A stretch of 34,239 bases of DNA from a virus (Duplodnaviria; Heunggongvirae; Uroviricota; Caudoviricetes): positions 1-34,239 of the IMG/VR virus record IMGVR_UViG_2663762996_000010. One strand, given 5' to 3'. The position numbers are program-made. How positions within the stretch are numbered: position 1 is the stretch's first letter; each line of letters begins with the position of its first letter. Of this stretch, positions 6,001-9,000 are shown one piece after another.

Positions 6001-9000
6001 AGAGAACCAGTAATTCTTCCTGGTAGCTTTCCTTTGTAGGTTATCCACACATTCTGCGCCTCTAAAATTACGGGGCGCTTTTCCGGCGACTGCTCATCCC
6101 CTTCACATAACCCGGCAGCAACATCCAGGAAGACCTGTCTGATGCTCCTTCTGGCTGCTGCCTCATAAAACCCCAGCGCGGCACCTTCAACACGGTCCAG
6201 CGAGATGTCCAGGTCAAAAATTTCACCGTCAAAGCGTTTTTTGTCCCGTAACGCTAAAGTTACCGTAACTTTATTCTCAAAATTGCGGATCCCTTTCACA
6301 ATCAGTTCATAGTTTTGAGTCATTGAATTACTCTCCCCGTGCAGCCTTACGCTTGTCTTCTCTGATTTTGAAGTACAGATTTGTCAGATAAGTCAGGAAG
6401 CCCAGAACCAGACTCCCCAGTACACCAATCGCAGCCCACTGTGACGGACTGACCTGATCAAGCCACTGTAAAAACCAGTAGCCAGCACTGCCTGCGGAGG
6501 TGCCATAGGCAATGCCCGTTGAAATTTTGTCCATGGATTTCATAGCCTCACCTCCGCAAATAACGGATGGCGTAGTTTTACACTGAGAAATGAAAGGGAT
6601 TTGAAAAGAAAAGCCCGCAAAAGCGGGCGAAACAATATATACAGTAAGGAAAGCACTCTATCCAACAAACCACCCACAGTTAATCGGAATAAAAGCAGAG
6701 TGCTTATGAATGATCGCCTGCCCGAAGGTTAGTATTTCTGCACAGCAATTTTGCAAAAAAAAGCGATCATTCATAACTTAAACGTCTTTCAGTCACTCCG
6801 GGATTTCCCATCATCGCAGACTGAAAGACTCTAACTGGAGCGGGCAGCGGGAATCGAACCCGCATCATCAGCTTGGAAGGCTGAGGTAATAGCCATTATA
6901 CGATGCCCGCATATGGTGCCGACTACCGGAATCGAACTGGTGACTTACTGATTACAAGTCAGTTGCTCTACCTACTGAGCTAAGTCGGCACTGGACCGCC
7001 ACCGGGGACTCGAACCTCGCACACTCAACTTAAAGGGTTGACGCTCTTTCCTGATGAACTGGTGACGGTTGGTGGCCCTTGCTGGATTTGAACCAGCGAC
7101 CTGGCGATTATGAGTCGCTCGCTCTCACCACTGAGCTAAAGGGCCGGGCGCAGGATAATAACGTTACGAAATCAATGTTGCAAGCATTCAAAAATCACCT
7201 GGTTAAAAATCACCCTTAGCTCCTCCACCAGCGCATTCACCATGTCTATCCGAGATAAGTGGCACAAAAAAACCCGCTTGTGGGCGGGTTTTGTTTGCTT
7301 TTGCCATCACGTACAAAATCGGCAAAATATCAGATTTGCATGAAATATATGCCTTTCAATCTACTTTTGCAACACTTTGCTTTGAAAATGCCGCCTTTTG
7401 TTTTGAACGTGTTCTCATTACAAACAATAAAGCCTCACTATCCAGTCGTTGAAAAATGTGTTTCATTGCAACCCAGTGACGAGTAAATGTTTTGGACCAG
7501 TTTTTAGTTGCCACTCCCGCCAGTAATGCCAGCTCCTGGTATTCATAACCTTCCCCACCAAAAAGTTCTGCTTTTACTGCCTGCGCCGCCAGCCAGATTA
7601 ATTTTTTCAGGCGTTCCTGCGTTTTCCCTGCAATTTTTCTGGTACCGGATTGAGTATTAAATTCATTCCACGCCCACTGTGTTATCGCGATCTGATATTC
7701 CCAACAAATACTCTCGCCGTAACACCACAACAACCAGGCTTTATGATGCTCTTCAAGAGACAGCAAAGCCCGCCGCCATGATGATGTCGAAAACTCAACC
7801 GGGCTGACCAGGGCAATTGATGAGCCATTCGCCAGTGATTGTTTTCCCGGGATTGGTGGATTATCCCGCGTTATCATTTTTCCAGTCACTTCATCGCGGT
7901 ACCGGATTTTTTTTCGCCTGTAACGCCCTGTATCGAACATGGCATTCTCCTGCCAGGCTTCAAGCTGACCTTTTGTTGCCCCACTCAAATCAGCGGTGGC
8001 GATAATGAGCTGCTCACGCACAAACTGTAAATACTGGTTATTCATGCGCACTCCAGTTCTGTGATTTTTATCCCCAGCCGCCCACCAGGAACGAGCTGAC
8101 CGCGCACAATATTGATTTCATCAAACTGCTCGTCGTCTATGAGTAGTCCGGCATGCGTCAGCGCATCCAGTGGTGCTTTCAGGATATTGTCCAGGTCACG
8201 ACGGCGCTTATCCGGTGGCTCTGCAATAATCTTTATCGCCAGCCTTCCGGACAGGTTTAATTTCAACCGCTGCTGGCGAACAATTAGCGCCACATCATGG
8301 CGATAACGCTTTCCGGCCTCCGAGATGAAATACGTATTGCCATGACGTCGCCAGTAGGTATTCACCGTCGGCGGGTAAGGCAAAACAAATTCTATGCGTT
8401 CAGTCATTCATGCTTTCCACTTCAGGACACCCGAATTTCTCGCGTGCATTAAAAAACGAATCAGCAACAACAGCTGGCTGCCGTGTTTTTCTTCAAAATC
8501 TTTTACCCCGGCGTGCAGTTCGTTATGACATTTACGGCACAGCGGAATAACAAACAAATCATCAGCCTTTGTTCCCATCCCTCCCAGTCCATGACCAATG
8601 ATGTGATGCGGATCATCTGCCTGATTACCGCACGTCATGCATTTCTGCGTTTTTACCCAACGCGTGTATACAGGCATCTCTTCCCGTTGTGGTTTCTGGC
8701 GCTGGAGATACTGAGCCGGTGACTCCGGATCAACGGCAATGCTGACCACCGTCTTTTCCTGTGGCGGGTTTTGCTGGTGGGCATGAGGCAACGGCGCAAG
8801 ATTTTTTGTGCGCTGCTTCAGTATGCTGGTGGCGGTCTGCTCTCCCGGTACGATGTCGCTTTCGCGGTACAAGGAGCGGATTTTTTCCGCACGTAACCCC
8901 AGAGAACGACGTAATACTGCCTCCGGAAGCGCGTCCGCCACCTGATTGCAGACCGCCCACCAGGATAATTCAGCCAGCGACAATTCCCGCTCCTGCGTGC

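Follow-up and report, generated by a model that had tools for sequence, protein, structure and literature searches.

Lambdoid phages that carry Shiga toxin (Stx) genes have been known since the late 1990s to harbor tRNA clusters between the antiterminator gene Q and the late genes. In phages of the 933W type, such as Stx2a_F349 and Stx2a_F451, the three genes ileZ, argN, and argO lie downstream of Q and of the terminator tR' and ahead of the genes for late cargo and lysis, with stx following the cluster. A literature search on ileZ, argN, and argO of Shiga-toxin phages returned only unrelated papers, and the history of this cluster is given here from record annotations. Tightly packed tRNA genes, separated by a few nucleotides and released from a single processed transcript, are also a feature of the virulent phage T4, in which some of the CCA ends are not encoded.

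A cluster of four tRNA genes is present on the minus strand, at positions 7145-6836, of the virus record IMGVR_UViG_2663762996_000010, which was analyzed over its whole stretch of 34,239 nucleotides (nt), hereafter called the window. By its sequence and position, this element is a lambdoid late-region tRNA operon that heads the late operon, and a sister version of the ileZ-argN-argO cluster of Stx phages. It lies between Q/tR' and the holin gene, as in Stx phages, which bears out the original prediction that it occupies the slot where lambdoid phages usually carry toxin or moron cargo. Public phage and genome records already include annotations of this version, which, as an operon for codon supply, is ordinary. 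Sequence comparison nevertheless gives it two twists, since genes of the bacterial thrU and glyT type stand in for argO and a gene of the argN family has been switched to a UUU anticodon with a C at position 33. The main function of the cluster is probably the supply of minor tRNAs for phage translation, as suggested by codon usage in the late genes and by the kind of tRNAs that it encodes.

Composition and relatives of the cluster

The four genes called by ARAGORN each encode their CCA end and stand 1, 2, and 3 nt apart, which confirms the tight packing originally predicted. A gene was accepted as a tRNA when it reached the Rfam RF00005 gathering score of 29 bits and formed a cloverleaf. The CAT, Thr, and Gly genes scored 72.5, 73.0, and 64.9 bits, respectively, with E-values from 1e-13 to 1e-16, and they have U8, U33, and a paired T stem. 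Minimum free energy folding of single tRNAs gave no cloverleaf, even for the Thr gene, and covariance-model scores and pair counts were used instead. Packing is similar to that of the T4 cluster, but there is no sequence relationship between the two.

The likeness to the Stx cluster includes the slot, the tight spacing, the encoded CCA ends, and the promoter architecture, with a nearly identical sequence in Stx2a_F349; moreover, the first gene is identical (76/76) and the second homologous (76-80% identity). Three differences are found. The argN anticodon of Stx phages is UCG, whereas the window homolog has UUU and C33; argO (Arg-UCU) comes third in Stx phages, whereas the window lacks it and presents Thr-UGU and Gly-UCC in its place; and stx follows the Stx cluster, whereas in the window no stx genes follow and the holin gene comes next.

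A further sister, Met(CAU)-Arg(UCU)-Thr(UGU)-Gly(UCC), occurs in prophages of E. coli and Shigella (L135, L136, L138, and L141, including Shigella flexneri and E. coli ECMA0423) and has the layout, the Thr-TAT-Gly junction, and the promoter architecture of the window. Its second gene is built on the same scaffold as the odd gene of the window, with the same anticodon stem UCAAC/GUUGA, but it is a well-formed tRNA-Arg with the loop CUUCUAA, a perfect T stem, and G73, unlike the UUU/C33 gene. In an unrepresentative IMG/VR sample, at least 13 copies had the Arg(UCU) form vs. at least 85 the UUU/C33 form. Because the sister clusters differ in their second gene, this slot holds three anticodons (UCG, UCU, and UUU), and the whole constitutes a natural series in which one promoter and scaffold are combined with any of these three second genes and with either argO or thrU plus glyT in the third slot.

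Using a 461-nt query made of the promoter and the cluster, with at least 80% coverage required, the cluster was found in 503 of 5,426 complete E. coli genomes (~9%). It is also present in a few deposited phages, including PhiR47_1, where Met, Lys, Thr, and Gly tRNAs are annotated. CAT-UUU-Thr-Gly, the type of the window, and CAT-UCG-UCU, that of Stx phages, abound among the IMG/VR matches listed; CAT-UUU-UCU (O157 PPompW prophages) and CAT-UCU-Thr-Gly are minor types, type counts in this database not being frequencies. The Thr-Gly pair with the same junction was also identified in Shigella, Citrobacter braakii, and Enterobacter hormaechei.

The first gene (7145-7070, minus strand; ARAGORN and Rfam) is identical over 76/76 positions to ileZ of Stx2a_F349 and matches K-12 ileX at 68/76, the acceptor pair 6-67 being altered on both sides in a compensatory manner. 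It has kept GGCCC...GGGCC, with the acceptor pairs C4-G69 and C5-G68, the TilS determinants. By its sequence it is an AUA-reading tRNA of the Ile2 type, with a CAU anticodon presumably modified to lysidine, and not a tRNA-Met, and PGAP names it tRNA-Ile in related genomes. A chimera involving this gene was observed in E. hormaechei (L134, 6268-6420), where a tRNA-Thr(UGU) body continues, in register, the 5' end of ileZ; it evidently arose from a deletion across the shared TTAGCTCAG, and its acceptor strands are unable to pair.

The third and fourth genes, both called by ARAGORN and Rfam on the minus strand, are a tRNA-Thr(UGU) at 6989-6914, which reads ACA and ACG, and a tRNA-Gly(UCC) at 6910-6836, which reads GGA and GGG. 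Near-identity of the two to host thrU and glyT had been proposed, and pairwise alignment confirmed it: the Gly gene is identical to K-12 glyT (75/75) and the Thr gene differs from K-12 thrU at one of 76 positions, in the variable loop (G45A). In related phages, the most frequent Thr sequence is exact thrU (69/102 copies) and the most frequent Gly sequence exact glyT (63/98). The order of the two genes is also that of the host operon thrU-tyrU-glyT-thrT-tufB, but tyrU, thrT, and the 116-nt spacer of the latter are absent from the window, and flanks, leader, and promoter are unrelated. Around the Thr and Gly genes (flanks, leader, inter-gene, and downstream sequences), no remnant of the host operon was found beyond a compatible 3-nt spacer, TAT, readable as the T of the thrU 3' flank followed by the AT of the glyT 5' flank, with a probability of ~6% of occurring by chance.

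Identity and gene order make a bacterial origin of the Thr and Gly genes plausible, and on the sequence evidence these genes of the bacterial thrU/glyT type take the place of argO in Stx phages. A capture from a bacterial source, as originally predicted, would fit; that the capture was recent is not demonstrable, as host flanks are missing and glyT is identical in Photobacterium. Indeed, Photobacterium sagamiensis (L140, 575-950) harbors a cluster Ser(UGA)-Thr(UGU)-Gly(UCC)-Asn(GUU), in which adjacent Thr and Gly genes, with an 8-nt spacer, match E. coli thrU at 75/76 and glyT at 75/75 positions; no phage genes were detected among the neighbors of that cluster. Because these tRNAs are almost invariant across distant Gammaproteobacteria, their identity cannot date the capture, and the donor need not be E. 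coli.

The same observations might fit a cluster that is largely neutral cargo, in which a bacterial thrU...glyT fragment joined an older ileZ-argN array, benefited the phage little, and persisted by hitch-hiking with prophage modules that were successful, as well as through gene conversion with host copies. The Thr and Gly genes are of the host-identical type, whereas ileZ differs from ileX at 8/76 positions, the Thr-Gly order is that of the host operon, and the TAT spacer is compatible with a fusion of flanks, a weak argument given that ~6% chance. We regard this explanation as unlikely: of the four genes in the host operon, the two that read minor codons were the only ones retained, the cluster is found in ~9% of complete E. 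coli genomes and in other genera, and codon usage fits its content specifically.

Codon usage, promoter conservation, and decay

Codon usage was determined in the complete late operon of L126 (29 genes, 7,649 codons), the best match over the first 14 kb of the window (98.6% identical, 95% coverage), and compared to 40 core genes of K-12 (14,638 codons). The largest late/host ratios were those of AGG (5.1), AGA (4.6), CGG (3.3), AGU (2.6), ACA (2.2), AUA (2.05), UCA (2.0), GGG (1.8), GGA (1.75), and ACG (1.7). The five codons that Ile2, Thr-UGU, and Gly-UCC decode thus all rank among the ten most enriched of 61, at 1.7- to 2.2-fold, with a hypergeometric probability of 4e-5 that is inflated by a shared bias for A/G-ending codons. 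This result goes against the original view that capture, rather than rare-codon supplementation, explains the cluster. The 24 phage open reading frames (ORFs) of the window itself follow the same trend, with 8.2 AUA, 12.8 ACA, and 14.2 GGA per thousand codons. The alternative cargo of the slot, argO and argN, reads the top three enriched codons. For the lysine codons, enrichment is absent in AAA (ratio 1.0) and modest in AAG (1.6).

Thr-UGU, Gly-UCC, and Ile2 are minor isoacceptors of the host for A/G-ending codons, and of the four-gene thrU-tyrU-glyT-thrT operon the phage has only the two minor-codon readers. Because of the codon enrichment and of this choice of host-operon genes, codon supply is the best-supported rationale for the cluster. 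Ile2 (AUA), Thr-UGU (ACA/ACG), and Gly-UCC (GGA/GGG) would act as ordinary working tRNAs, and the cluster would raise low-abundance isoacceptors for codons about twice as frequent in the phage as in core host genes.

The cluster is preceded by its own promoter on the minus strand, identified by scan and conservation, with a -35 box TTGCAA at 7183-7178, a 17-nt spacer, and a -10 box TATTAT at 7160-7155, and by a G+C-rich discriminator CCTGCGCCC at 7154-7146 (8/9 G+C) that abuts the first base of the first tRNA. A single match of this kind is weak by itself, as the scan returned 7 promoter-like sites in 1.8 kb vs. 2.2 expected. However, in 131 related copies, which present 38 distinct upstream 55-mers, nearly all keep TTGCA(A/G/T), exactly 17 nt, and TATTAT, the -10 box being TATCAT in a few; most have 6-8 G or C among the nine discriminator bases, while the spacer and the upstream DNA diverge among at least eight families. 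The promoter is credible because its hexamers and spacing are conserved over divergent contexts, a conservation that also speaks against neutral cargo, and the TTGCAA-N17-TATTAT promoter of the original prediction was in this way confirmed.

The combination of sigma-70 hexamers with a G+C-rich discriminator is that of a stringent-type promoter, and stringent control may reasonably be inferred from the discriminator. With its own sigma-70 promoter, the cluster would probably be transcribed in the lysogen, and RNase P together with 3' trimming would free the four tRNAs from a transcript in which 1-3 nt separate them.

The tRNA genes are far less diverse than their surroundings, with a nucleotide diversity of 0.005-0.017 vs. 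0.22-0.28 in the flanks (odd gene 0.017, Gly 0.013, Thr 0.009); even the odd gene is more than 10 times below the flanks. The pattern of variation is hardly that expected of neutral cargo either, since one Gly lineage (12 copies) bears the compensatory change C6U/G66A and the multi-copy Thr variants affect the tolerant positions 9, 16, 20, and 45, destructive changes, such as those that hit conserved positions of the T loop or of stems, being singletons. The neutral explanation can count in its favor that ~35% of the copies are off the modal sequence and that several lineages are clearly decaying.

Several points weigh against the supply of minor tRNAs as main function. AGG and AGA are the most enriched codons (5.1- and 4.6-fold), yet the cluster has no tRNA for either. 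The late genes had to be taken from L126, as the late operon is incomplete in the window, and the host reference is a 50-kb sample, not the whole genome. Low diversity is no proof of constraint on each gene because the block may move as one recombining module. Moreover, many prophage copies are damaged, a sign that strong selection does not act throughout: in many genomes PGAP no longer calls the Gly gene of a lineage that acquired T11C and then G3A, an ileZ lineage has T54G, and E. hormaechei carries the ileZ/Thr chimera. Selection and decay together are nevertheless to be expected for a useful but dispensable function carried on prophages, many of which are defective.

As an example of such a Gly gene, the copy of E. 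coli 2009C-3133 (L002, 1830-1905), with mismatches in the acceptor stem (G3A) and the D stem (T11C), is left unannotated by PGAP. In most genomes among the best matches to the window, only tRNA-Ile and tRNA-Thr are annotated.

The UUU gene and tRNA-cutting nucleases

The second gene (7068-6992, minus strand) is called 'Lys-ttt' by ARAGORN. It was lost by the speed filters in larger Rfam searches and scored 31.3 bits (E = 2e-5) when its own 91 nt were searched alone; the majority UUU variant of the gene scores 44.4 bits and is called tRNA-Lys by PGAP. Its 76-80% identity to the argN of Stx phages comes with compensatory changes, and UUU replaces UCG in a loop that reads CCUUUAA vs. CUUCGAA (UCG) or CUUCUAA (UCU) in relatives. 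From these comparisons, the gene is a tRNA of the argN family whose anticodon loop was switched from the arginine form CUUCUAA/CUUCGAA to CCUUUAA. A copy of the anticodon arm from host tRNA-Lys was ruled out, the stem UCAAC/GUUGA being shared with the well-formed tRNA-Arg(UCU) found in the same slot of the CAT-UCU-Thr-Gly cluster. A 9-bp acceptor, as in allo- or Sec-like tRNAs, was also rejected, since ARAGORN, Rfam, and all relatives agree with a 7-bp cloverleaf that has U73 and CCA.

Unlike the three other tRNAs, the odd gene departs from canonical structure, with C33 for the normally invariant U33 in all UUU copies, an A51.C63 mismatch in the T stem, and U73, to which the variant present in the window (16/113 copies) adds C8, U4.G69, and U11.G24. 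The fold has been maintained in the family: across 17 distinct variants, 94.9% of the cloverleaf cells are paired, a share that drops to 28-53% once partners are slid; pairing is complete (100% of cells) in the acceptor helix, though six of its seven pairs vary; and three pairs show two-sided, compensatory changes. Every one of the 94-113 copies seen has the UUU/C33 loop, and IMG/VR yielded at least 94 matches of the C33 form and, among the matches listed, none with the normal loop CUUUUAA. Further severe lesions, U8C or a deleted U12, affect 27% of the copies, U12 being deleted in the PPompW lineage (14 copies).

The main identity element for arginine is C35, which is gone from the odd gene, so that arginine identity is lost, and the discriminator of tRNA-Lys is A73, vs. 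U73 here. Efficient charging by LysRS and decoding are doubtful because of C33 and U73 and, in the window, also C8. The evidence leans toward the C8 copy of the window being weakened or a non-functional relic, that is, a decaying former arginine tRNA; the odd gene may also represent a re-purposed tRNA of the Lys type. Codon supply explains a lysine tRNA poorly, because the host has plenty of tRNA-Lys and the late genes show no enrichment of AAA, and it is mainly here that defense against tRNA-cutting nucleases enters the discussion.

Two such nucleases have targets that overlap with the cluster. AriB of the PARIS system targets Lys(UUU) and Thr(UGU), with weaker activity on Asn(GUU), and cuts after C40 in U36AAUC|A41, a cleavage abolished by a change of U39 (PMC12409363). 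P2-OLD, the effector of P2-lambda interference, restricts lambda; it kills cells with tRNA-Thr(UGU) as main target and cuts at paired CNG motifs of the anticodon stem, at positions 28-30 and 40-42 (PMC12445682). Resistant phage tRNA-Thr rescues cells from P2-OLD, whereas host tRNA-Thr species, including overexpressed thrU, give little or no protection (PMC12445682). The resistant tRNAs compared here belong to virulent phages with large tRNA arrays, whereas the phage of the window is temperate and lambdoid.

The cluster might serve to evade tRNA-cutting nucleases (AriB of PARIS, P2-OLD, or PrrC), with the odd gene as a cleavage-proof tRNA of the Lys type and Thr, perhaps also Gly, as replacement supply. 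The anticodons UUU and UGU match the main targets of both enzymes, Lys(UUU) and Thr(UGU) for AriB and Thr(UGU), cut first, for P2-OLD, a coincidence that is notable but post hoc. Virulent phages oppose resistant tRNAs to both enzymes, T5 its tRNA-Lys, -Thr, and -Asn to PARIS and others a tRNA-Thr to P2-OLD, and the odd tRNA differs from host tRNA-Lys at positions 39 and 41, as T5 tRNA-Lys does (PMC12409363). With CAA at 28-30, UUG at 40-42, and UAAGUU at 36-41, it has neither the AriB nor the OLD motif and should, by its sequence, escape both enzymes because the cleavage motifs are absent. The abundance of host tRNA-Lys together with unenriched AAA, the fixation of the UUU/C33 loop with no normal Lys loop among the matches listed, and one rare Thr lineage altered at 42-43, inside the OLD motif, are also in line with such an escape.

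Nevertheless, we consider this explanation rather unlikely. The Thr anticodon arm is that of host thrU, with CUG at 28-30, CAG at 40-42, and UAAUCA at 36-41; because it includes both motifs, the window tRNA-Thr should be cut like the host tRNA, and, as thrU itself hardly protects against P2-OLD even when overexpressed (PMC12445682), nuclease escape by this gene is unlikely. Unlike the resistant tRNAs of virulent phages, the Thr of the window has the cleavable arm of the host, and resistance is only predicted, for the odd tRNA. The paired CNG motif of glyT, which also has A37, would leave Gly unprotected too; Gly is not mentioned in the main text of the P2-OLD paper (PMC12445682). C33, U73, and the C8 of the window make charging and decoding of the odd tRNA doubtful, and more than a quarter of its copies carry the additional severe lesions. 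The original suggestion of a decoy or replacement against anticodon nucleases is therefore unlikely for Thr and still viable only for the odd UUU tRNA.

In two IMG/VR sequences (L009 and L056), the Thr gene presents G42U or G42C plus U43C, by which the 3' CNG motif is destroyed and the anticodon stem shortened, features that have been reported for P2-OLD-resistant phage tRNA-Thr. They could be taken for two independent OLD-escape alleles, an interpretation that was downgraded: L009 and L056 are probably one lineage because both belong to the Gly lineage with C6U/G66A.

The odd RNA might also act without being consumed, as an uncharged look-alike of tRNA-Lys that binds an anticodon nuclease or another tRNA-binding factor. 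The loop of E. coli tRNA-Lys is CUUUUAA, in line with the string U36AAUC|A41 (PMC12409363), and PrrC cuts next to position 33. The odd loop differs from that of tRNA-Lys only at position 33, and the cloverleaf is maintained. On the other hand, AriB and OLD recognize the anticodon stem, which the odd RNA does not share, and resistant phage tRNA failed to shield host tRNA by competition in the work on P2-OLD (PMC12445682). A decoy appears very improbable.

The boldest form of the counter-defense proposal is that temperate lambdoid phages made a working, cleavage-proof lysine tRNA out of a phage arginine tRNA (UCU/UCG to UUU, with C33) and kept it beside Thr(UGU) because the Toprim tRNases of rival elements, PARIS on P4 satellites and OLD on P2, hit Lys(UUU) and Thr(UGU). 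We judge it rather improbable; a counter-defense role in general, which would act mainly through the odd tRNA, likewise stays a minority reading next to codon supply. If true, a prophage cluster common among complete E. coli genomes would be a counter-defense module, and the odd gene a natural switch of tRNA identity with a non-canonical position 33. Real protection would extend tRNA-based counter-defense from large virulent phages to common prophages and would bear on how P2 and P4 elements coexist with lambdoid phages, those with stx among them. The overlap of UUU and UGU with the recently identified targets of PARIS and P2-OLD makes protection worth testing, which would be cheap.

Flanking signals and other features of the window

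All signals that flank the cluster are on the minus strand. Upstream lies the late antiterminator gene Q (8051-7356), an ORF whose equivalent in close relatives is annotated 'bacteriophage antitermination protein Q.' A consensus scan placed a putative pR'-like late promoter, TTGCAA-17-TATATT, at 7372-7344, just downstream of Q, followed at 7292-7266 by a tR'-like intrinsic terminator with a hairpin and a run of seven T, which would end a short late leader RNA; its hairpin was also picked up on the opposite strand in the scan. The leader (7267-7340) gave weak matches, below the gathering score, to the Salmonella prophage RNAs isrK and isrJ in Rfam (E = 0.014 and 0.036), and its sequence fits a 6S-like late leader RNA.

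Right after the Gly gene, a long hairpin AGTCTTTCAGTC ... GACTGAAAGAC is found at 6830-6784, and its sequence is also present 3' of Gly in relatives from E. coli and Shigella. A second inverted repeat, ATGAATGATCGC/GCGATCATTCAT, lies at ~6771-6706 between the Gly gene and the next terminator, and the region 6706-6830 also contains a 37-codon ORF without obvious ribosome-binding site. About 200 nt from the Gly gene, the consensus scan detected an intrinsic terminator, GCCCGC-TTTT-GCGGGC with a T-rich tail (6631-6603), between the tRNA operon and the gene for a class II holin (6543-6328; ORF and annotation of relatives), which is the first lysis gene. Terminators before and after the cluster suggest a scheme of insulation and read-through. 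In the lysogen, transcripts from the tRNA promoter would stop before the holin gene, which would insulate the lysis genes; after induction, Q-modified polymerase from pR' would read through both terminators and the tRNA genes.

Beyond the holin gene come a YdfR-family gene and genes for lysozyme, spanin, and terminase, as named by PGAP in close relatives. The head of the prophage is HK97-like and its tail lambda-like, and it is integrated beside serU; ARAGORN located serU at 26746-26835 and asnT at 27827-27902.

The early-left/immunity region (16617-22462) contains repeats that are 100% identical, among which a 300-nt block present three times, at 17577, 19589, and 21454. Three DicF RNAs (16694, 20356, and 22240), two C4 antisense RNAs (18878 and 20743), and two isrK-like RNAs (18777 and 20642) were identified in the same region. 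It looks like a tandem amplification with a unit of ~1.87-2.0 kb, or could be an assembly artefact. A hok/sok type I toxin-antitoxin locus is found at 10576-10900, with the sok RNA at 10726-10900 (111.7 bits) and an adjoining small ORF annotated hokD in a relative. Finally, a YfbU-family gene (3945-4484, plus strand) is inserted in the manner of a moron in the late operon; it runs opposite to the late genes and separates those for lysis from the HNH and terminase genes.

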